64,000 nt of DNA from Harriotta raleighana (lineage: Eukaryota), in contig JBNZDD010013695.1 in NCBI GenBank assembly GCA_050575255.1, positions 565,152-629,151 on the forward strand, in the 5' to 3' direction. The position numbers and the translations under genes are program-made. Under the pieces are notes generated by a model. It was not told the DNA's origin. It ran no database searches and worked only from the letters and a program-made list of their open reading frames with translations. Shown here piece after piece: positions 1-54,005 of this stretch. The number at the start of each line of letters is the position of its first letter. Positions within the stretch are counted from its first letter, which is position 1.

Positions 1-845
1 CAAATATTCTGTGGTGATTTTCCTCACCTAAACTAGCACGTTTAAAAAAATATATTTCTTACATCCCAACTCTAGCACAAAAATAAATCTTCAGAATTGT
101 CTGAACACCGTGAACATCATCACAGCAATACCTAACTGTTCTTTTCAGACTTAAAAAAGTGCTCACAATCAATGTGTACTGTGACAGATGGGACTGGGCT
201 GTCTGCTCTCAACCAGAGAACGTTTAGTCTCCAAGGGACTTCAAGTCCAATGTTTGATAACTTTAGAGAAGTACAGTGAAATATTTGCTTGTGCAGCAAT
301 AATGCCGCCACATATCACAAGCACAGCTCTAGAATGCAGGCTAAAGTCTCAAAGACACTATTACTGTTGAATGTTGATGAGAGTCCCTTGTTGGAAAATG
401 TCCTTCTGTGATTTTTGCATGAAGACAGGATGCTTGCAATTTTAGAATATACAAATATACGGTGAATTCACTTTACATTCTTTATATTCTGTGAAGCGGT
501 TTGAGACGTCTAGAAGATGTAAAATGTGCTACATCATATGCAAGAATTATTATTATTATTATTACTCCTTCACACCTTAATACACAATAGCTATGGACTA
601 CTTTGATAGCAGGTCATCTCTTTAGTATCTAGTCACCCAGTTGGTTGGCCTCATGAGGGAGACAAAGTAGTCTGATTGAAGCAAATATGGTGATTTTAAT
701 GTAGGAATGCATCTGTGGAAAATTTGCAATAGGTCTAACATTCATTCAGCACAACAGTTCTCACAAAGCAAGGGCATTAGATCAGAGAAGTAAATGTGCC
801 TAAAGGCAGAAAACACAGCGCGGAAAGAGATTTGTTAAATCTTAC

Positions 846-1026
846 CAATGTCGTCATCAGTACGATCTGTGGGGTCTTTCTCTAGACACTCACGAACCAC
901 ATCCCTCCCCATCAGTGAATCAGAGGCTCGATCAATGTCCTCTTCATCTTCCTCCTCTTCCTCCGAGTCGACGGCTGTCTCTGTGAGTCCAGTTAGATCT
1001 ACATCCCCCATTTCACTCTCCGTGGC
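846..1026 (-). CDS. rapgef6: PDZ-GEF coding exon 8 (acidic linker before the cNMP-binding-like domain)
   Basis: ttctgtccacag|GCC ACG GAG...GAC ATT G|gtaaga. 181 nt, encodes [60 protein letters not shown]. Confidence 0.95.
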
Positions 1027-1674
1027 CTGTGGACAGAAGAAGATGGTGTAAAGGAAGCTGTCCTGTAAAGATCCTCTCAACCCAATAACGTCAAGACACC
1101 TGATGAGGAAACTCAAGACTCGAGGCGACAGCTACTTAGGAGCTACCTGGAGTTTGAGTACATGAACATATTTCAAACATCAGGGTTGGGAATCCACCTT
1201 GATTGGTTTGCAGAGAGGCAGCCAGCTGCTGCTCAAACTCCACATCTACACTGCTGGAAAGATTGCCCAATGGGAAGGGATGTGTGTCCAAATTATGGTA
1301 GGATGATGGTGGTAATGCTCTCATACATTTCATGTTCTCAGAGGAGTTCCTGGTACCTGCCTGCCAACCACTGAGGGCTCCATCCAGCCTGTGCTTGCTG
1401 AATGTCAACTGACCAATTAGTGACAATTCTCCTTGAGAAGATAAGGCGATCTGTGGGATGACAGGGTAGCCAACCTGGCTCTTTGGCAGGGGTTTAGACG
1501 GGCAGGCATAGTCACTGTGTAAATCACAGTCCTAACAGGTAAGGTCTTCCAAGCTGGATGAGCAGTGGAAAAACTTGACAGACTGCACTCTCAATGGCAA
1601 GCTACGCAGTTTTAGCTGGTTAGACTCCAGCAGTACCCAAGGCACATTCTGAATTTCCAAGCCTAGGTGGAACT

Positions 1675-13320: not shown

Positions 13321-14106
13321 TACCAAAAAGATTATCACAGTAAACGTTTGATAAAGCGTCATTCCTATGGAATTGACGAATTATCCAGAGCAGTGAGTTA
13401 GGCATATGAATAAATACATAAGTAAACGCGTCTGGGGTATTGACAACATGATGACTTAAAATGGTAGTGACCAGTTATTACCAGCAATTTACTGTAGTAT
13501 TTATGCCATCTGTTTGTGAAGTCTCTCATGGGGTACTTCATCAAAGGGCCTTTTGAAAGTCTAAGTACACTATGTTATATGGTTCCCACATTACTTTGGG
13601 GTGCCAACTGCTAATGCGACTGGTCAAACAAGATCCACTTGTATTGAAGTTCTGCTGGCTGTCGCTTATTAGGTTATACACNGCGTCTGGGGTATTGACA
13701 ACATGATGACTTAAAATGGTAGTGACCAGTTAAGCCAGGGTTGAATTACCAGCAATTTACTGTAGTATTTATGCCATCCGTTTGTGAAGTCTCTCATGGG
13801 GTACTTCATCAAAGGGCCTTTTGAAACTCTAAGTACACTATGTTATATGGTTCCCACATTACTTTGGGGTGCCACCTGCTAATGCGACTGGTCAAACAAG
13901 ATCCACTTGAATTGAAGTTCTGCTGGCTGTCGCTTATTAGGTTATACAATAGATTATATTATATACAATTAACCTTCCATTTACTTTCTTGGGATTGATT
14001 ATGTTGGATTTAGGATTATGAAGAGACTAGCAACATAGCATCCTGTTTACAGCTGTCTCATATGATGAGATGTACCTCAAAAGTACTCACCTGGAAAAAT
14101 AGCTCA

Positions 14107-24452: not shown

Positions 24453-25022
24453 CCTAAACTCAGTGAAACACTTCCATATGCACTATTGGCACATTGCAAA
24501 CCAATTTATTGCACCCAAACGTGTAATTATTTATTTTATAAGCGCAAATTTTAATAATTTTGCATGATTCAATCCTGCCAAACATTTTGGTTTAGTTTTC
24601 TCAAAAAAGTAAATATCGAGTGTTTTCTCAGTGATTACAAAACACAAGCTCCCCAATGGCGTCTATTGCAAACATACAGGTTTTTAAGTGAATAACATTT
24701 TTTGTCATTTTCAAATAAGTTTACAGCACAGCTTAATAAGCACTAGGAGCTTCAGAATCCTGATACTGCATCAACACTGAAATCTCAAATAGCTTATCCA
24801 GGTCTCTTAAACATGGGCTAGTATAATTTTTTTAAGAATTAAAAAGATTGGAGGAAATTGAAAGAGCAGTACAACACATAAGAACATTATTTTTTAACAA
24901 AATGATTATCGAATACAGCGGGAAATTTGGGGGCTTTATTTTAATACACTTTCATGTTGCGACAAAATTAACTGGAGAGGAGTGCACCTTCTTTTGTTTC
25001 ATTGCACAGTAATGGTACTTAC

Positions 25023-25241
25023 CTTATTTCCTTTTTGGTTATTAACATTCCACAAACAGCCTAGAAGTTTCAATGTTTTCACCACAAAATAAAAACTGCA
25101 TTTAAGTTCCTCACTGACTGGAAAACCTGACTTCTTAGAGAGAAAGCAAAGATCCATAATATCGAGGCTGTCCTGAATCGAGAGCAAAGTCCGACCCATG
25201 CACTCACTACATGACCAGCAGGGAGTTTCACGATCTTGCAT
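25023..25241 (-). CDS. Candidate alternative first coding exon (MQDRETPCW...MDLCFLSKKSGFPV...QKGNK)
   Basis: 73 open codons, with in-frame ATGs also at MGRTLL and at 25157 (MDLCF), ending at a consensus phase-0 donor AAG|gtaagt. Confidence 0.45.
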
Positions 25242-25580
25242 GAAGTTCAAACGTTTGCCATCTCCATTCACGGCATGTTAAAGAAACAAAACATCTAATT
25301 GCCTCCAGGAGTTGGTGGGAGTAGAATCAAGAACAGCAGGAAGGCTAACATGGCTGACTGCTCACAGCTTCAGTTCAAATACAGGTTTAACAGCAGCAAG
25401 AGGTTGCAGGCCAGCTTCCAGATTTCAGCACCTCTCACAAATCTATTACAGGAAGCCAAGGAGCTGCATATGGATAAAAGTCTAGTTTAAGGCCACTGCT
25501 AACTGACAGTGTGACCACCGCTGGCTGGCTTTCTATTAGCTACCCTAACCAGATTTTGGTCATTACACTCTTTAACTTAC

Positions 25581-25640
25581 AGATGACAATGAAATCCGAT
25601 TAGCCAAGCAGACACACAGCTCTGGCAAGTAACCTGACAT
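25581..25640 (-). CDS. Candidate alternative first coding exon (MSGYLPELCVCLANRISLSS)
   Basis: ATG plus 20 open codons ending at phase-0 donor TCT|gtaagt, in repeat-free sequence. Confidence 0.4.
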
Positions 25641-25729
25641 TCGGCATGCACAAGACGCGCAAATAAAAAAAAATGTAACTTGGACGCTTAAGGTAACATT
25701 CAGACAGGTAAACAAATAATTGTGCTTAC

Positions 25730-25783
25730 TTTGGAGGACCAGGGCTGCAAGCAGTTGGCATAGCAACGTACAAGGAAAGCCAT
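25730..25783 (-). CDS. rapgef6: Alternative first coding exon of a short PDZ-GEF isoform (MAFLVRCYANCLQPWSSK)
   Basis: GAA ATG G Kozak context, 18 open codons, phase-0 donor AAA|gtaagc that joins in frame to LPAD. I recall a similar N-terminus in predicted vertebrate PDZ-GEF isoforms but have not verified this. Confidence 0.75.
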
Positions 25784-25789
25784 TTCCTG

Positions 25790-26700
25790 GTAAAAAAGAC
25801 AGAACGTTTCCCCTTTTATAAACGGAAAGCAAAAAAACAGGAGAGAAGAAAATATTCTGGAGCAGGACAAGGTGGAAGTCACTTCAGGAAATGCGAGCCC
25901 ATTGCAACAACAGTTGAGGTAGGTGAATGTCCCAGCCCGACTTTTTATCAACCTGCCAGTCCACAGACACAGGGAGGCTGCAGAGCACCACTGAAGGAGG
26001 TGGCAAGAGAACAGAGGTTTTCCTCAGGATGCTAGTGCAGCAGTGAAATGTCACAATTAATTCAACCCTAGTTTTCCCAGTCAGAAGTTCTACATTCCGC
26101 CTTGCAAACGAAAAACTGAGGAAGCCGCAGCTTAGGATGTCGTCATATGACAGAGAACCATTGCCTACTGACTGTCTGTGCCCGTTTCCTCAGCAGGTCC
26201 CTCAGGATAACCAGCTATTGATTGGATGCTTCGTAGCGAGATGAAATATCTAATAACAGAGGGAGGGGGAAAAAAGGGTGGGAAGAGAATAGAGCTACAG
26301 CAATGGAAATACTGCATGACATCATCTCCACACCATGCTATTGGAACTGCAGCAGATCAATCAGCCTAGCTATCCTGAAGCTGCAGACACAATGGTTATT
26401 GAATCGATCATGTAAATATATGCCACAGGAAAAAAACATACAGTGTACAGCGCAACCATCTGCAAGAAACCTGACACAGGCTCACATCATCTTCGCAGTG
26501 TTGCTGATTTGTGCGGAGAAAATTAAATCTGATTTATTTAAAAGCCTTTTCTGCAAAAAAAAATCACACAGCAAGGCAGTGAATGATTTATACTGGCTAT
26601 CAAACACTGTCTTACAGAATTATTCTGCCAAAGCTGTTGTTACCTGGCACTAAGAGTGGCTGAACACGAAATGTTATCCTATTTGCAAACACCTCTAAGA
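25790..26700 (-). promoter_or_regulatory. Putative internal promoter region for the short isoforms
   Basis: Repeat-free stretch directly upstream of the ATG/donor cluster. TATAAAAG on the minus strand at 25813-25820, CCAAT on minus near 26221-26225, TGACATCA near 26317. Confidence 0.4.
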
Positions 26701-38196: not shown

Positions 38197-38367
38197 CATG
38201 TGATAAGTACTGTTTAGTGACGGCCTGTCGGTATTGTAGGAATCCACATCATCGGTGATTGTTTGCCGCTCTCCCTTCAAGTTGATCTTCCTGAAACGCC
38301 GGCGAGACTGACGGTGAGTAACTTCCCTCTGAAGATTTTTCTCCTCACTCTCGCTTATGTTTTCCAC
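38197..38367 (-). CDS. rapgef6: PDZ-GEF coding exon 6
   Basis: tatttcag|GTG GAA AAC...CAC ATG|gtaaaa. 171 nt, encodes VENISESEEKNLQREVTHRQSRRRFRKINLKGERQTITDDVDSYNTDRPSLNSTYHM. VEN, LQRE and ITDDV are RAPGEF6-type. Confidence 0.93.
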
Positions 38368-39024
38368 CTGAAATACATGTTCAGGATCTTGATTGAACAT
38401 CCAGTTCTTCCATATGATAGAAAGTCGATGGAATTTTAAGAGACTCATTTTCGATTTGATAAAGTGTTCTGTGTGTGCACACGTGTTTCGGAGGGAGGGG
38501 GAGAGGGGAGGGGAGAAAAGAGCCCACTTTGTTAAGAACGATCCAAGCACAGCCACAGCAAGAAACTAACTGAGAAAATGACGTTATTTCAATGAGTTGG
38601 AGCCCACACTTCCTTCCAGGAAACAGCGAGTGATGGGGCCATCAATGCAAAAATGACTTGTTCTGCAATGCACACAAGGTGCTGAGCCCTGCAGTTTTCT
38701 AGTTGTAGGTTAAATATGCCCCCATGTCATGTCATACTTACAGAGATAAACTATCTGTTTGTACACATTGTTCAATTCTCTTTTTATATTTACACCACCT
38801 TAATGTAAATTACAGTAAAATGTATTCAGGTGGCATTAAAATGTTATTGTACATTTTGTTATTGCACATTTTTTCAAATATGCATTTATATAGTGTATAA
38901 TGATAATAATAATAATAATCCTTGCATTTGAGATAGCACCTTACCAAGCCTTCTAGACGTTGCAAAGTACTTCACGGAATGTACTATAAAGCAAATTGAA
39001 TGTATGTTTTGTGGCCGAAACTCA

Positions 39025-44448: not shown

Positions 44449-45091
44449 TACAACCCATAAACTAGCCACAACTGTCAAACTGGGACATACCGAATGTCAA
44501 TCATGATAAACTGCAACAATACAAATAATATGACACTGTCACAAAGATGCCAATTTAATATTCCATGGTTGCACAGAGATCAAAAGTTGAAGCAAAGAGG
44601 CATTTGCTCACGCTATTTCTTAAAGGTCAGCGTCATCAATGTCATCGGGTAACTGAATGCTCACTTGTGTCCAAGATAGCAGGGGGTGCGAGGAGTTTCA
44701 AAAGTAACTCACCATTATGTCTATCACTATTCCTTATCCAGAAACGAGAGTAGAGAACGAGACCATGTGGGCTTCAAGCATACAAATACCACCTTATTTA
44801 TATACAGTGGAATAAAGGATTATTGCTTTATTATTCATTTTAGAAAGTTCAAAACCTATTTTTATAAACCTATTAGTGTGTTAAACTTACTGAATCTATC
44901 TTAAATGCAGCCCGTTAAAAATACAACGATAGCCAGATTAATCAACTTGGCTATAAATTTAGTGATAAAGGTGTAATCTGTGGCGGAGGAGTACCTAATG
45001 AAGCATAATACAAGAATGTGAGAGCTGGCACTTGTTATGAAAGGGAAAACGCAAGAGTAAATAAAAAATGGTATTACGAGCCTGTTCTCAC

Positions 45092-45164
45092 CACAATCAT
45101 TTCTGAAGGCTCCAAAACAATGCATTCACTTCGTCTCAGGCTTCCTGCAGACTGCTTGCCAAAA
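45092..45164 (-). CDS. rapgef6: PDZ-GEF coding exon 5
   Basis: ccctttttgcag|T TTT GGC...ATT GTG|gtgaga. 73 nt, encodes FGKQSAGSLRRSECIVLEPSEMIV. Confidence 0.93.
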
Positions 45165-46069
45165 CTGCAAAAAGGGTGAAGAAAAGGAAAATGTTTACAT
45201 TCAATTAGCGAAACTAATCACGCGATTATCCACTGCCTCGATATTTGCAGTGAACTGGACATTTGCGTACAGTTACAGGGGGAACTTTGATGTGTTCTTC
45301 CTGCTTTGTGAGATTGACGAGACAGCGTGACCACAGATGGCATACATGACCTTCCAATCAACCAACGCAACATTTCACAACACTGGCTCACAACAAAGGC
45401 AAAAGGCCATCAATGGGAAGGTTTCCCACAATTTGATGTAATGCCCCACAAACTGATAATTGCGGATTTCTGATTCAATAACGTCAGGGATAGGTACATT
45501 GAACATGTATGTGTATTATTTTAATTGATCACTGTGACAGACGTTTCCCTTTGCCACTGTGACTGAAGGGTTCAACCTATCACAGCTAAAATAACGATAT
45601 CAAGAGAAACCAAACTGCAAATTTACCATCCTATAAACATTGCAAATATTAGTACAGTACAACTAATATAGATCATTCACAGCGGGGGACGAGGAATTAA
45701 TGTACCAGTTGGTACAATGGAAAATTGTTTAAAAAAAAACCACTGAAGAAATTCATCTCACACAGAGGGGGAAGCCATATATACATCATATATCTGATGC
45801 CATGTATGAAAATAGAGATGGGTTGGGTATCAGCCTGGGTCCAACCTGAATAGAGAACACTCACCAAGCAAGATGAATCAATCCATGAATACGCAGCTAT
45901 GGACCAAATGTTTCTGGAACAACGTGATCATCAATTAGCATCCTCTGCTGTGGTTTGTTTCAACCGAGACTCTGTCAAGTTGACTCCGAAGCTGAGCTTT
46001 TGGAACAGCCCGGCAGTTTCTCACCAAATTGCAAGATTTGTAGATGGGTCTTTTTTGATAAGCGCCACC

Positions 46070-46255
46070 ACTACTTAACGTCCACCTGAACAGGCAATCG
46101 GGACCTCGGTTTGATGTCTTCTCCTACACTGCACTGGAGTGTCACTCTGTACTAGAAGTTTCAAAGTGATGAGGTGGGCTTGAACCCACAACCTTCTGAC
46201 TCAGAAGCGATGACACCAATCTTCTGACTCAGACACAACTGAACCAGAATGACAC
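46070..46255 (-). mobile_element. Ancient DeuSINE-type fragment
   Basis: tccacctgaacaggc...gggacctcggtttgatgtct...gggcttgaacccacaaccttctgactcaga. Confidence 0.65.
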
Positions 46256-47042
46256 AGGTCAGAGAAAGGGAGAGAGTGGTACAGAGAGAGAAAGGGAGAG
46301 GACAGAAAATTCTGTACTAACTCTTGTGCTAAATGAAAAGTATCTGACTTCTACTCCCCATTTACTGATTTGAGACAGAGTGAAAAATCTTTTGTTCCAC
46401 TTTAAAGAGACATATCAAGTTCCTTATAAGTTTGCGTGTGTCCGCACACTCTTGCAAATAGGAAATTCATCACCTAGGTAACAGACGAAACCACTGTTTT
46501 GAGTCTTTCTCTCAGAGTCAAATAGACCTTCTAAGTTTCACCTTCGCTCTTCAACTTAGAAGTTTCATTTCGTAAAGGTCAACTTCATCAATCAGGAAGC
46601 TAATAGATAATAATAATAATAATCCTTGCTTTTGATACAGTCCCTTATCACGTCTTCGAGACATCTCAAAAGGCTTCACAGAATTGACCCCCCACCCACA
46701 GAACATTAAACATCAACAACAATCCTACAGGTAATTTGGCTGAAGGTGAAGCGAGGACAGTCCACCCACAGTTAATAATCTATGCTTTGTGCATAGTATT
46801 GCCCAAATAATCTATGCTTTGTGCATATTGCCCAAAGTCATGCTTTACCTGCAATTAGTAAATTCTGATTTGGGAATTTACTGTTTCAAAAATGTCTTGC
46901 CAAATAAAAAGCAGGAAACTGAAGAATAAAGCTAATTTCTAGATGACTTTAATGTTTTGTTAACTAGCGGTACAAAGTTTGAGTTGACGGAATGCTCGCA
47001 CCACGAACAGCACACACATTGTGAGTGACAAGTTTTGACTTG

Positions 47043-47194
47043 TAATAATAATAATAATCCTTCCATTTGATAAAGCGCCATATCACATGTTTGTGACGTC
47101 TGAAAACGCCTCACAGGACACACTGTATATTTTGTGGGTGAAACCTGGCAGCCAGTTGCGCACAGCAGTGTCACACAAGGAGTCGTGGATTGAG
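47043..47194 (-). mobile_element. Truncated dominant SINE
   Basis: Tail and core in reverse complement. Confidence 0.75.
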
Positions 47195-47274
47195 TGTCCA
47201 AGCTTCCTCAATAACACAAAGATACTGAAATTCTTGATATTTTCTTCAGAATTTTTGCCTACGACAATTGTAAT

Positions 47275-48630
47275 TTACACAGATTGTGCAGCATGGAAAC
47301 AGGCCACTCAGCCCAACAAATCCATGTGAGTCGCCATCCACCCACAACCTTATATGCAAATCTAGCTTCCCCTTAAATGTATAACACTGTCTGATTCAAC
47401 CACCACTTTGGACAAAGTTCCACATTCTCACAATTCTTCGCATGAAGTAGTTCCTCCTGAATTCTCTTTAAATCCTCTGGTCGCTATCTTATACTTGTGC
47501 CTCTGAGTACAGATTCCCCAACAAGTGGGGAAGAAAAACGTTTGCTAACTTCATCAAACTCTTTTATAATTCTGAACACATGTGTTAGGTTCCCTTGTAA
47601 ACATCTCTTCCCCAGCAAAAATTAAATCTACTCTGATACCATTATCATCTTTGTAAACCTACCTTGTACTCTTTCCATCACTGCTATATTGTGGTGGGGT
47701 AGCCAGAATTGGATACTGTACTCTAACTAAGTTTTAGACTAATTCAATATTACATTCTCACTTTTATCCTTCTGGACATAAAGCCCAAGAACCCTTTGGT
47801 CTTGTTTTTAAAAAAATATATATAGCACTATTTACCTCCCTAACTACTTTTAAAAGTTTTATGGATCTGAATTCCCAGATCTTTGTTTCTTCTTTATTTC
47901 CTACGATTTAGATGTACAGTACAACTTTTTTTTCCGCCAAAGTGAGTTATTTTGCAATCCTATGTTAAACTTAATTTCCTTATTCTGCCAGCCTGCGTTG
48001 TACATTTCTCTTAACTATTTAACATGCCCCCAGTTGGTGTCATCTGCAGATTCAGACACACCTCCTTTGGCTGAATCCAAATAATGATAATCCTTACATT
48101 TGATGTGAGATAATTCATGTGAATGATAAACAGTACCACTTCCAACCTCTTGCCAGCATCCATTGAGTTAAATGGAGTATAAATGGAATGCAAATAAATG
48201 AAAATTGCTGTTGTTAACTTCTACTCTTTGCTATCTGCTTTCTAACTATTCTTGAATACTTCTCACACAAGTCCACACACCCCAATTTTAACTTTTAAGT
48301 TTCTCACCTGGTGCTTTATCAAAGGCCTTCGGGAAATCCTAACACTACATCCACTGCATTTCCCTTATCTACTTTATGGATTAAATCTTCGAAGAATTCA
48401 ATAAGGTTTGTCAAGCATGTTCTACCTTTTTGTAAATCCATGCTGGCTGCTCTTAATTATATTCTCCTTCTCTAGATGACAAGTCAATTCATCTTTTATT
48501 ATGGATTACCCACAACCAATGTTAAGATGACTGGCCTACAGTTTCCTGGATAAGGTCTATTAACCTTTTTAATAATAGGTACTATATTTACCCGCCTCCA
48601 TCCTTCTGGCACGATTCCTTTCTCTACCAA
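47275..48630 (-). mobile_element. CR1 LINE fragment (RT to 3' tail)
   Basis: Minus-strand YRPVIL, ACLTNL, VDVVL.DF.KAFDK and FADDT-like motifs; CR1 tail near 47280-47330. Confidence 0.75.
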
Positions 48631-48665
48631 ATTTTTAAATATATATTATAAGTATATAATTTTTA

Positions 48666-48930
48666 AAATCCTTGCATTTGATATAGCACTTTTCACGTCT
48701 TCTAGACGTCACAGAGCTTTACTGTAAAGTGAATTCACTGTATATATGTGGGCAAAACGCAGCAGCCAATTGCACACAGCAGTGTATCACAGTCATGGAT
48801 TGAACTGACCAATTTATTTATTTTAATTTANTTTTTAGGGATTATTATCAGGCGTGTGGAGTAAGGAAACTTGCCCAAGGTTTCACCCTGACCTGCCTCG
48901 AATTGAACCCAGGTCTCTCACTTGTAAGGC
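48666..48930 (-). mobile_element. Near full-length dominant SINE between CR1 fragments
   Basis: Tail, core and B-box region present. Confidence 0.85.
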
Positions 48931-49244
48931 TGATTAGGGCTGTGGGACGCTACCCTTTGTGAGAAGTGCTATATAAATTCAAGTTCTTGTTTCATCAATT
49001 GCTATTAAATGATTATATTGCAGATATTTTCAACTCTCTTTGGGGACTTTTTCAAGCTGAGAGGGGAAGAGGAGAACAATTTAGCACAAGAGTGCGCGAA
49101 AGAGTGTGTGTTGGTGAGAGAGTGCATGAGAAAAGGGTGGGAGTGAGAAAGAGCATGAGGGAAAGCAGGAGGGAGAAACAAAGAGGGTGAGGGCAAAAAG
49201 AGCAATTCTTTTGCACTGCTTTTTACTCTTTATTATGCGTCTTG

Positions 49245-49745
49245 TTTGGTTTCATCTGCTCATTTTGGTAATACCACTGCTTTATCTGAGTCCAAATCAT
49301 TTATGTATATGGTGAGCAGTTGCACTTCTAATCTGAACTCCTGCAGAATACCACATCCTTTTGCAAGCCTGAGAAAATGCATTACTTCTAATTTTTGCTT
49401 TATTAACCCTTCTGCTGCCTCTCCCACAACTCTATGTGGCCTAATTTTAAGCACAAGGCTTTCTTGTGGCACTTTATTGGGACCTCTGAAAATCCAAATC
49501 CTCTACTTCACTGCATATCTGTTGCCTACGTTATTGATTACATCTTCAAATAACTCTGTAAACTTGGTCTAGCATGACCTACCCTTTTGAATCCACACTA
49601 TCTGCTCTTAATTATGTATTTTTTTCTAGATGACTAATTACTTCATCTTTTATTTATGGGTTCCAATTCCTTGCCCACAACCAATGTTAAATTAAGTGGC
49701 TTGTAGTTTCCTGGATTAGATCTACCCTCCTTTTTAAACGTAGAT
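49245..49745 (-). mobile_element. CR1 LINE RT fragment
   Basis: NYKPL, IYINDLD and DFQR motifs on the minus strand. Confidence 0.7.
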
Positions 49746-50125
49746 ATTACAGATTATTCATTTAGCATTACAACCATTTCTTTATTATCTGTTTGATTTT
49801 ATCTCCCCTTAATGGTACTAATCCCTACTTTAATCATGAAATTATTGGTAACATATTTCTATTTCTTTTTTTTGCTATATTCTTTTCATAAAAATTTAAA
49901 GTTTTGAAGGGCTTTATGTATCCTGTAACCAGGTCAACCCCCAGTGTTATTCTCAGGTCTAAAGGAGGAAGTGGAAGGAAAGGGATAAGTAAAACATCAG
50001 CAAAATCTCCTCAATGGCCTGGATTCAAACATAAATGGCTTCCCTATCTCAGGATTTTAAGAATTGACTTCGCTTATAAACCAGCAGAAGATTTGTTATC
50101 CTTGGGAAAAAAAATCATACACTAC

Positions 50126-50209
50126 CTGCAACTTGGAAGATACATCGATTCTTTCATAAATACACATCCTGAAACGAGGATGTACCAGCAAGTGGCAATG
50201 CTGTTAGGA
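50126..50209 (-). CDS. rapgef6: PDZ-GEF coding exon 4
   Basis: tatactttag|T CCT AAC...TGC AG|gtagtg. 84 nt, encodes PNSIATCWYILVSGCVFMKESMYLPSC(S), matching family CWYILLSGSV. Confidence 0.93.
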
Positions 50210-50271
50210 CTAAAGTATACAAAAAAAAATAAAGTTAGTAAACGTACAAGATTAGAGAACAACTAACTGGT

Positions 50272-50712
50272 GTGTCAGGCTTGCTCATTTGGCAGCACTT
50301 TCATCTCTAAACGCTGGTGGTTCAAGCCCCACAACAAGTCTTTGAATTTATACAGTCTAAGATGATATTCCAATGCAATGCTAAGGCAGAGGCAGAAGGA
50401 TTGCATTGCCGGAGACACAATCCTTCAGTTGAGACATTAAACCAGAGTTCTCATCTGCCTGTTCAAGTAGGTGTTAAAGATCCTATGGTACTATTCATAA
50501 AGAGAATAATTTTTTGCCCCCCCATTGGCTTGTCAAGCAATCCTCCAAATATAGTTGGTCATTCACTCCAAGGATCTTTATGGAACTTCGCCATGCACAA
50601 TTGAAACTGCTTCATTCACCTACAAATAACAGTCACCACACCTCACAATAAATCCTGTGAAAAGCTTTTTGATGTCCTCCCAAACGTGAAAAGTACTAAA
50701 CCAAATGCATGA
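50272..50712 (+). mobile_element. Ancient DeuSINE-type element
   Basis: tgtcaggcttgctcatttggcagc head and gttcaagtaggtgttaaagatcctatggtactatt core. Confidence 0.65.
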
Positions 50713-51379
50713 ATCATTAGTATTCAATAAATTCTGAACCGTAGAAACGAAAAAAAATGAATACAATAAATGCCCAGCTCTGGGTATCCGGAAATTGATC
50801 CTAGTAGACTTGTTGTGGGCACAAAAGCAATTTTTAAAAAAATCTGCGGACACAAACGTATGGACTTTTACTGCCCCAGCCCAATCTCCTAGCAGGCACC
50901 CCCACCTCACCTTCCTTGGTGTCCATCAGTGGCTAGGGGTAACGACTGAGTCAGTTTGAATCCCACCATGCAAGTTTTTAACCGCATTATAAGTATACTT
51001 AGGTGGAAATTCATCTTGCCAGACCAGATCTCACCCTTCCCCTCCCACCAATTTATCCCACTGATATTTTAATTGGATTTCCCCCTCCCGTTAGCCTTGG
51101 TTATAGTGTAGTTTAATTGGACATAGTAACAATAATAATCCTTGCATTTGATCTAGTGCCTTATCATGTCAGAACTTCACAGAATGCACTGTAAAGTGAA
51201 CTGTGTTTATTCACAAAGTGTACATTTCGTGGGTGAAATAGCATACCAGAGCAGACACTACATTATCCAATTAATTTATCATTGATTCATCTACTTTATG
51301 CAGTTCAAGAATATGATTCTTGGGAATATTCATAATAGTACCATATCCATTCATTCTGATAGTGTCCCATCACAATTTG

Positions 51380-51675
51380 TTGATTTATCTCAAAGCACTT
51401 CACAAGCTTTTATTGGTGAAGTTTATTGACTGTGTATTTGCAGCTCATTTACACCCAGAAACGTCCCATAAACAGACACGTGAATGGTCGACTTTATGTT
51501 GGGTATTATTGGTTAAGATACCTGAACAGTCAAGACTTTGGTTTAACATCTTGTCCCAAGGACACCTTCACCAACATTACAGCATACCCCCAGCATTGCA
51601 TTGGGGTGTCAGTCTCGATTATCTGATAACTCCCAGATTGCAGTTTGAACCCACAACTTTCTGACTTAGACGTGA
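51380..51675 (-). mobile_element. Ancient DeuSINE-type element
   Basis: cctgaacag...ggtttaacatcttgtcccaaggacacc...ttgaacccacaactttctgact. Confidence 0.6.
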
Positions 51676-51964
51676 TCGTGGCTAGGATTGTTGCCTGGAA
51701 TGAGGAAATTCAGATCTAGGGAAAGGCTTGAGGTATTTAGATAATGGGAAGCTTAGATAGAGAAGCGTTATTATTTGCAGTGATCGGAGGGTGGGGGTCT
51801 AGAACAAAAGGGCAGTTTTAATTATTTTCTTTTAAGTGAATACTCAATAAGCCCGTCGCTTACACAAAAATAACAATGTTATTCAGTGAGCACCATTACA
51901 ATATACTGAAACAGTGTCACAATGTAATTGCATGTTTTTCCATCTCTCTTCCCTTCCGAAGTAA

Positions 51965-52435
51965 GAATAATCCATGCTTTTGATATAGTGCTTTATCATG
52001 TTTTTGTGACGTTTCAAAACGTGACGTAGGATATAATGTAAAAAACTGTACATTTTGTGGGTGAAATGAGGAAGCCAATTGCGCACGGCAGTGACCCACA
52101 AACAGTCGTGGATTGAGTGATCAATTACAAGAAATCACTTGCCATTTTCAAACTCCTCCAAGAGTCAGCACAAAGTATGCAACCACAGTCCCAAAGCTTT
52201 GCATAATACTCACTTTCACCATTTTAAAATGGAATAGAATTATAATAATCCTTGTACAGTATTTGATATAGTGCTTTTCACGTCTTCCAGACGTCTCAAA
52301 GCGCATCACAGAATATACTTCAAAGTGAACTGACTGTACATATGTGGGGGAAACGCAGCAGCCAATTATGCACAGCAGTGTCTCACAAACAGTCGTGGAT
52401 TGAAATGACAATTTTTTTTGAGTGATTATTGTCAA
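51965..52435 (-). mobile_element. Two truncated dominant SINE copies next to exon 3
   Basis: Tail and core at about 51965-52125 and 52240-52435. Confidence 0.8.
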
Positions 52436-52455
52436 GCAATGTCACAAATACTTAC

Positions 52456-52512
52456 TAGAACAATACTTCATTGGCATCATGCCTTTCATAACGCACAGTT
52501 GTGCACATCAAT
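52456..52512 (-). CDS. rapgef6: PDZ-GEF coding exon 3
   Basis: tatctttcag|A TTG ATG...TTC TA|gtaagt. 57 nt, encodes LMCTTVRYERHDANEVLF(Y). Phase 2-2 fits both neighbours. Confidence 0.93.
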
Positions 52513-53873
52513 CTGAAAGATAAATATTCACACAACAAAGGCTTTTTAAATAGCGATGAGGAAAACATTGAAACATTGATTACATTTCAAATTCTGAACA
52601 AAGCATCTTAGAAAACTTTGTCAATGAATGACAACATTACGTTTGAGTTCAAAAACAAGGTGTTCTGAAAGATTACTCATTAATACAATTGCATGATAAG
52701 ATGTGTGCGGGGAGGGGAGAAAATCACATTTATTTCGTCTCAGTCCCACACATCAAAAATATTTGACTAATAGGGCTGGGTGGCTGAGAATTAGTTTTTT
52801 CTCTGTTCACTCTTTAAAGAAGAAAAAAACCATTTATTTGAAAGAAAGGTCAGATTATTTTAGCCACCAGTGTCTGACACAAGTCGAAATCCATCACCAT
52901 CATTAGGAGTACAGTAAGTAAACCATTCAGAGTTGCACACAAGCATGCAACCTACACATAAAATATTCCCTTGCAATCATGCCATTTTCAATGCACTACA
53001 CATTCTCTCCCTTGCAGGATTCAATCCCATTTAGAGTCAAACCCTCACATGTTTTTCGCCTTAGCACGTCGCGCTACCGGGAAAGCTGCTATATGTGAAG
53101 TAAGAAAACTTGACCACGGATTCGCCCTGGTCTGCCTGGATTGAAACACATGTCTATTGGATTGAAACACATGCCTCAAGCTTGTCAGGCGAATGCTCTA
53201 ACCACTGAGAATATGTTTGTTCAGATGGGCTTTTTCAGTTAGGCCTATCCTACACCCGAGTCTGCCCTTCCAAGTCTTGCCAATGAGCCAGGCTGGCTGA
53301 CCTGTTATCGACAATGCCCCGGAGTATTGAAGGCCCACCTAGCTCAGGAACAAGACAACGATCACCTTCGTAGAGGGTTGACTCGATTCCATTGCCAAAA
53401 ATCTTGAAACCAATTCACAGCCCCAATTAGGAAACCTCATAAGGGACAAAATAGATCCAACCATCGTCAGAATCACCAATCTCTGAATTTCCCACCCCAA
53501 ACCTCCCAAAACACGTAACCACATTGGAAATCCCCTCAACGGGGATTTTTACGTCCAAAAACTCATAAGGTTGTTAAAGACACAAATACAATGGTATTTT
53601 TACCACTAATTTCAGTATTGTTTAAAATTTAAGATTATCAATTCCTTTTCAGGTAATCCCACTTCTCTATAATAAAATCTGCTTTAATCAGGTTATGAAA
53701 CCCAAGCATAGAATAGCATTGTCGATGCCATTAAAAGTCAGTGCTGTTAAGATATTTCTTTACCAAACAAACCATACTGAGAATAAATGAGTTACTTAAA
53801 ACACCAGAGCTGTGGATTAAGAATCAATCCAAGTTTCATTTGGACAAACATCTTTATGCACGTAAATACTCAC

Positions 53874-53944
53874 CTGATCTGATGTTCCCTCAAATTAGAC
53901 AGGTCATCCATGCCATGGAGATGGGAGTATATAATTTCTAAATC
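53874..53944 (-). CDS. rapgef6: PDZ-GEF (RAPGEF6/RAPGEF2 family) coding exon equivalent to exon 2, start of the N-terminal cNMP-like region
   Basis: ttttttcttgaacag|GAT...ATC AG|gtgagt. 71 nt, encodes DLEIIYSHLHGMDDLSNLREHQI(R), matching family motif DLxxIYSYLHGMExLSNLREHQLR. Confidence 0.93.
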
Positions 53945-54005
53945 CTGTTCAAGAAAAAAATAAGACAGATTGAATTCAAAAGCAACAACTTTGTTGAAGG
54001 CCTAA

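Follow-up and report, generated by a model that had tools for sequence, protein, structure and literature searches.

A 760-bp segment in a long intron of Harriotta raleighana raises the question of whether a Rap GEF can change its N-terminal tag through a choice among small alternative first exons. The initial annotation had recognized three short frames in this segment (modules 1, 2 and 3) and read them as an array whose members all splice in frame to a shared downstream exon, the LPAD exon. We analyzed the window, that is, the whole 64,000-nucleotide stretch of contig JBNZDD010013695.1 that contains the segment, and asked which gene it carries and which of the three frames are exons.

Host gene and candidate exons

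By sequence similarity, the window carries the 5' part of RAPGEF6 (PDZ-GEF2) on the minus strand and not that of RAPGEF2. The best match of the gene was the sawfish RAPGEF6 (P0072), to which the minus-strand exons were 73-90% identical by tblastn (79, 84 and 88% on three of them). We also compared two constitutive exons with five bony-vertebrate proteins, three of RAPGEF6 (quail, lungfish and Albula) and two of RAPGEF2 (narwhal and Xenopus). Identity to RAPGEF6 was higher on both the LPAD exon (77-83% versus 70-72%) and the next constitutive exon (63-67% versus 57-59%), and we therefore rejected the earlier assignment of the gene to RAPGEF2. The features on which the analysis draws are the following:

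53950-53852, 52517-52458, 50220-50128 and 45175-45077 (approximate bounds), minus strand: four upstream exons of the long isoform, located by tblastn with P0072
38197..38367, minus strand: last exon of the long-isoform N-terminus, 57 codons with a phase-0 donor, 79% identical to P0072 and missing from the short isoform
25821..26500, minus strand: candidate internal promoter, GC 45-47%, with CCAAT at 26344 and 26225 and TGACG at 26145
25814..25820, minus strand: putative TATA-like box, 37 nt 5' of the module-1 start codon
25730..25783, minus strand: module 1, read as an alternative first coding exon (the 'MAF' exon), 18 codons with Cys7 and Cys11, phase-0 donor at 25729
25498..25700, minus strand: stretch colinear with the read-through of database sequence P0001, a possible conserved non-coding element
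25581..25640, minus strand: module 2, a 20-codon ATG frame ending TCT/GTAAGT, with a 6/9 donor and a weak start context
25023..25241, minus strand: module 3, a 73-codon ATG frame with the 9/9 consensus donor AAG/GTAAGT
7285-7154, minus strand: constitutive LPAD exon, 44 codons, phase-0 acceptor
838..1029 (approximate match bounds), minus strand: constitutive exon following the LPAD exon, 88% identical to P0072

The four upstream exons (45077..53950) encode the first cNMP-like region, which matches residues 25-99 of Epac2 (E ~1e-17). The exon at 45175-45077 lacks one codon relative to its counterparts in sawfish RAPGEF6 and whale RAPGEF2, and its 3' end is the MIV start region that mouse Rapgef2 is described as using for a 'MIVV' transcript. 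The exon at 38367-38197 lies inside a stop-free frame of 142 codons (38565-38137) that reaches some 200 nt 5' of its acceptor; an in-frame ATG near 38449 may mark a further start through 5' extension of this exon, or may be there by chance.

The three frames are present as first described, free of stops from the ATG to a GTAAG donor and with the translations then given. Their lengths (54, 60 and 219 nt, or 18, 20 and 73 codons) are all multiples of three, and the LPAD acceptor is indeed in phase 0. The segment is also free of repeats, as had been claimed, in that the surrounding 2 kb (24701-26700) has no other blastn match within the window. Neither similarity among the three modules nor internal duplication was detected by blastn in this region, and we rejected tandem duplication as their origin.

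Module 1 and the short RAPGEF6 isoform

A protein search with module 1 and its 22 upstream codons as the query returned 47 proteins. All 18 residues of the module were unchanged in 44 of these and a single substitution was present in each of the other three; Cys7 and Cys11 were retained in all 47, matches that were selected for similarity in the first place. The module was joined directly to the LPAD (or LPGD) exon in 27 of the 47, 21 of them of the RAPGEF6 type and 6 of the RAPGEF2 type. The remaining 20 read through the module-1 donor and all continue with Val-Ser, as fits a conserved GTRAG donor. Named carriers include the RAPGEF2 of narwhal, snub-nosed monkey, Xenopus and Pelobates and the RAPGEF6 of quail (P0022), lungfish (P0019) and many teleosts (P0029 and P0033 among them); none of the 47 is a named cartilaginous-fish isoform. 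The count of 18/18 identities is inflated by ascertainment, because the search favors near-identical short matches, yet the identity of the peptide across both paralogues and from cartilaginous fish to mammals holds, on these alignments, despite this bias. When the LPAD exon was used as the query in an independent search, the 50 matches included P0069, from a contig of 1,705 nt, in which module 1, with 17 of its 18 residues, is joined to the next two exons and which is therefore likely to be a spliced mRNA of the RAPGEF6 type.

Module 1 fits the LPAD exon, 18.4 kb downstream, in frame and in phase 0, and the joined database proteins confirm the proposal that an alternative N-terminus splices onto that exon, with loss of the first cNMP-like region. 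The short isoform loses 176 residues, including the domain that resembles Epac2 CNB-A (E ~1e-17), and keeps the second cNMP, RasGEF-N, PDZ, RA and RasGEF domains (as in quail P0022). Whereas the constitutive LPAD exon is 70-86% identical, the peptide of module 1 is the same letter for letter in both paralogues, and its invariance thus marks what may be a functional motif. These comparisons establish module 1 as an alternative first coding exon of RAPGEF6; use of any of the modules in Harriotta raleighana itself is something that we infer from the genomic sequence.

The region 5' of module 1 is consistent with transcription from an internal promoter. The start codon has a strong context, with a purine at -3 and G at +4, and the element at 25814..25820 resembles a TATA box. 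The GC content of the candidate promoter exceeds that just downstream of the cluster (32-36%). No CpG island was found in 25821..26500 and no second TATA or CCAAT box within the cluster of modules. Taken together, the sequence suggests an internal promoter directly 5' of module 1. A pyrimidine tract with an AG ending three bases 5' of the module-1 ATG was also observed (25784-25800, minus strand), and the codon that precedes the initial Met encodes Glu in 15 of 16 5'-extended ORFs of other species. The tract could possibly act as a conserved acceptor to which a non-coding exon further 5' is spliced, as an alternative to the first-exon reading.

The reading that we favor, with a probability of roughly 0.62, is that module 1 is an ancient alternative first exon whose tag replaces the long N-terminus and likely tethers a short, probably neuronal isoform to membranes through a lipid modification. 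The internal promoter (TATA-like box and CCAAT boxes) would give rise to a short RAPGEF6 transcript starting at module 1, and the 18-residue leader would take the place of the first cNMP-like region. Its use may be restricted to the brain, judging by RT-PCR on the mouse paralogue, and the exon presumably originated before the duplication that separated RAPGEF2 from RAPGEF6. Once S-acylated, Cys7 and Cys11 would hold the Rap GEF at membranes, much as the N-termini of GRIP1b and GRIP2b are described as doing.

The lipid modification is the more tentative part of this proposal, and we place S-acylation of Cys7 and Cys11 just short of even odds. Palmitoylation, which had been suggested for the cysteines of the whole cluster, is plausible for module 1 alone, through its analogy with GRIP1b and GRIP2b. 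Its main rival is that the peptide is conserved as a protein-binding motif or as a leader for stability or translation, possibly with an added constraint on promoter or splicing at the DNA level, which we consider possible at odds well below even. Consistent with such a role, Rapgef2 protein was reported only where exon-1' transcripts are expressed, an effect discussed in terms of stability or translation in the available text of that study (PMC5611689). Residues other than cysteine are invariant too, which would go beyond the usual needs of an acylation site, and the Glu codon before the Met points to a constraint on the DNA. Yet the brain-restricted MKP leader has no cysteine, so that an effect on stability would not be specific to module 1, and the cysteines at i and i+4, together with two basic and no acidic residues (net charge +2), would suit a helix that faces the membrane. 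The helical (amphipathic) moment was not significant for module 1 (P=0.094) or for modules 2 and 3 (P=0.36 and 0.51).

Modules 2 and 3

A single frame of this kind is cheap, because comparable frames of at least 12 codons recur in the same 30.8-kb intron, 13 of them in sense orientation (7 with GTAAG) and 5 in antisense. The occurrence of two extra frames at most 710 bp from the module-1 donor had a P of 0.0048 (GTAAG) or 0.014 (GTRAG) against the window background and of 0.0052 or 0.012, respectively, in 5000 dinucleotide shuffles. With the donors held fixed, P was 0.008 under a Markov null and ~0.04 at the empirical rate; among the other sense GTAAG sites of the intron, 9 of 45 carry an ATG frame of at least 18 codons. 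The clustering thus suggests more than chance (P 0.005-0.04), and is suggestive only, because the 710-bp interval was picked post hoc. A further 21-codon ATG frame was observed in the same intron (14153-14091, minus strand) at a perfect CAG/GTGAGT donor. It lies mostly in a three-copy, 77-bp tandem repeat with two N and is probably derived from the repeat, which cautions that perfect donors with frames can arise by chance.

The label 'Cys-rich', under which the modules had been grouped, did not survive comparison with the local composition (P=0.31, 0.35 and 0.33 per module; 0.17 pooled). Cysteine makes up 8-12% of the modules against 6.5% locally, and the pooled excess was significant against the whole intron (P=0.026); we dropped cysteine content as evidence for the modules, given the lack of significant local enrichment. 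It had also been remarked that the upstream modules would act as uORFs for the downstream ones if one transcript spanned the cluster. This is formally true, as 10 ATGs separate the module-1 donor from the ATG of module 3, and it disfavors translation of module 3 from such a transcript.

We regard module 2 as unlikely to be a real exon; it probably marks a U1-type site within the intron, preceded by a frame that arose by chance. An out-of-frame ATG lies 7 nt upstream. A search of proteins of 71-2000 aa, a range outside which stand-alone ORFs of similar length fall, gave no homologue (one candidate, which did not score). The stretch around the module is colinear (25700-25498) with 122 codons by which P0001 and its near-identical relatives P0107 and P0108 read through the module-1 donor. 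The frameshift-tolerant score of P0001, the one sequence so aligned and one picked beforehand by eye, was 58, whereas none of 40 null draws exceeded 47. A nucleotide-profile version of the test was not significant (z=1.0), and a shared landmark lies at offset 189 in P0001 and 190 in the window. The open frame of the three sequences allows a GTRAG at offsets 0, 183 and 241, and none within 30 nt of the position of the module-2 donor (offset 149). The module-2 donor is therefore impossible at the matching place in this cluster of sequences, which lowers the likelihood of module 2 to the level given above. In the same three sequences a Met precedes a Val-Ser pair by 21 codons, which would allow an ATG-initiated frame to end at a phase-0 donor at offset 183; the peptide it would encode is unrelated to module 2. 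The flanks of the ORFs (10 downstream and 7 upstream), compared as back-translated profiles, gave no convincing match, the highest z being 3.0 and 2.8 with 25 null draws.

Module 3 has a better claim, and the chance that it is a real, lineage-restricted exon is nearly even. It ends at a donor that scores 9/9, a perfect fit shared on the sense strand by just two other sites (and by none on the antisense strand), the true exon end at 53874 and the site beside the tandem repeat at 14091. In phase 0, the sequence leading up to this donor has no stop over 85 codons (P ~0.007), and the length of the ATG frame (P=0.003, Markov null) is equalled at 1 of 93 other GTAAG sites. With a perfect donor and a frame of this length, to dismiss module 3 would be wrong. 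The first ATG (25241) has a weak context and an in-frame ATG at 25157 a better one, at which module 3, if real, may start. Inside the module we identified acceptor-like sites in phase 0 before 25172, 25133 and 25130, that is, 150 and 111 nt before the donor; if module 3 is real, it is as likely to be an internal cassette of 111-150 nt as a first exon. No homologue was found among proteins of 129-2000 aa (seven candidates, none of which scored), a range that again leaves stand-alone ORFs of similar length outside, nor was there anything like module 3 in the ESM Atlas or Pfam. In metagenome contigs, a collection unlikely to hold this clade, 187 pattern matches yielded no confirmed case. Among 50 LPAD-exon representatives, no N-terminus resembled either module beyond low-complexity Cys/Val scores; the pattern left 5 of the 50 unparsed, and most of the N-termini were intron read-ins. 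Such negative searches are weak for a clade-restricted exon, as they covered proteins longer than 70 or 128 residues and gave no named cartilaginous-fish isoform even for module 1.

In the array originally proposed, each module would serve as a first coding exon in its own right, transcribed from a separate start site; modules 2 and 3 would then be confined to cartilaginous fishes. Module 1 is such an exon, and the clustering (P 0.005-0.014), the phase-0 GTAAGT at both extra donors, the donor and long frame of module 3 (P=0.003, Markov null) and the repeat-free, GC-raised setting agree with the idea, as does the precedent of mouse Rapgef2, for which three brain-restricted first exons (MAF, MKP and MLP) are described in the accessible text of PMC5611689. 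The array is nonetheless very improbable as a whole, given two modules that have no homologue and weak start contexts, the out-of-frame ATG ahead of module 2 and its impossible donor in P0001, P0107 and P0108, a single set of TATA and CCAAT boxes, and no local enrichment in cysteine. Module 3 could instead be a symmetrical internal cassette (111 or 150 nt, phase 0-0), in which the ATG is incidental and which would insert Cys, Lys and hydrophobic residues before the LPAD exon after splicing to module 1 or to the long-isoform exon that ends at 38197. All three acceptor-like sites are in phase 0 with no stop before the donor, one has 13 pyrimidines in 14 positions, and every flanking donor is in phase 0 as well. 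We find this doubtful, including the splicing to either partner: no such insert occurs in the 27 joined proteins, there is no homologue, and, since two of the three sites belong to a single tandem acceptor, their agreement in phase has a chance of about 1 in 9.

The extra GTAAGT sites can also be explained with chance frames, as promoter-proximal U1 snRNP sites that would keep the nascent transcript of a long intron from being cleaved early, a plausible reading whose odds come close to even without reaching them. Enrichment of 5' splice sites on the productive side of promoters is described in PMC4773876. The stretch 24945-23879 (minus strand), just beyond the module-3 donor, contains seven AATAAA/ATTAAA signals, against none between the modules, and the share of other GTAAG sites that carry a frame of at least 18 codons (9/45) shows how often such frames accompany a donor. 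The intron is AT-rich, however, and poly(A) signals would be common in it anyway, and the 85-codon open frame before the module-3 donor (P ~0.007) is left unexplained. The array of three first exons is thus unproven, while module 1 is, by its conservation, real and ancient.

The three-member array would be the more surprising result; module 1 on its own is an exon of a known kind, modest but useful. In the full version, a cartilaginous-fish RAPGEF6 would carry three unrelated cysteine-bearing tags within 760 bp, one an ancient S-acylated neuronal anchor, unchanged since before RAPGEF2 and RAPGEF6 diverged by duplication, and two younger ones drawn from promoter-proximal intron, a combination to which we give a very small chance. 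If true, it would mean that new first exons can be born beside an old one and would provide an isoform-level switch for the disputed localization of PDZ-GEF.

Comparison with known first exons and lipid-anchored leaders

For the mouse paralogue, alternative first exons 5' of the LPAD exon are already on record (PMC5611689). Mouse Rapgef2 is described there as having 11 exons upstream of the LPAD exon, and transcripts with the MAF, MKP and MLP first exons gave an RT-PCR product from mouse brain only. Module 1 is very probably the homologue, in the paralogous gene, of the exon of 'Rapgef2-MAF' (Jiang 2017), a match that we infer, because the same text gives just the first letters of the leader; the module-1 peptide is found without change at the start of annotated mammalian RAPGEF2 proteins. 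Both the mouse exon-1' cluster, as presented, and module 1 provide short leaders spliced in frame to the LPAD exon, one of them starting with MAF. In contrast, the gene in our window is RAPGEF6, and modules 2 and 3 resemble no known leader. We found no tblastn match to an MKP-like exon in the window intron, a search that short diverged exons could escape, and no ATG directly at a GTRAG donor of the MLP type (the three ATG/GT sites present are not GTRAG). A catfish RAPGEF6 isoform (X5, P0103) has a single Met joined to the LPGD exon, like the mouse 'MLP' transcript, and this second, single-Met type of first exon may be common to both paralogues.

The widely cited human-type MKP leader contains no cysteine, and the construct primer in Jiang 2017 matches that leader (PMC5611689, available text). 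If the MAF leader is acylated, a brain isoform of RAPGEF2/6 would have a built-in membrane anchor that is missing from MKP-leader constructs. The accessible portion of PMC5611689 makes no mention of a MAF exon in RAPGEF6, its conservation or its cysteines, and a literature search with coverage of few subscription journals found nothing on the exon in RAPGEF6, its conservation or its acylation. Palmitoylome supplements gave no matches either in two from PMC5498535, in the part available, or in 11 files of PMC4537140, the latter an uninformative null because the positive control, GRIP1, also had no matches. The accessible part of PMC13260025 contains nothing on isoforms. Close counterparts of module 1 are the annotated MAF-type RAPGEF6 isoforms of quail (P0022), lungfish (P0019) and teleosts (P0029, P0033), gene models with the identical 18-residue start on the LPAD/LPGD exon; none of them is from a cartilaginous fish and none has a module-2 or module-3 start.

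Protocadherin and UGT1A arrays consist of large, homologous, tandem first exons with their own promoters, which are spliced to shared constant exons. The locus resembles them in that an alternative first coding exon is spliced to constant ones. Unlike theirs, its modules are tiny and mutually unrelated by blastn, and only module 1 is established. A nearer analogy to module 1 is offered by GRIP1b and GRIP2b (pABP-L), which, according to the text available, have palmitoylated alternative N-termini of 19 and 18 residues (PMC6365469). They too are paralogous PDZ proteins with a short alternative N-terminus and a cysteine near the start; they are unrelated to RAPGEF6, and acylation is shown there and predicted here. 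Similarly, Gab1-beta, another unrelated protein, is described in PMC6176924 as losing its N-terminal domain and reaching the membrane via palmitoylation, the same trade of an N-terminal domain that the short RAPGEF6, with its predicted acylation, would make.
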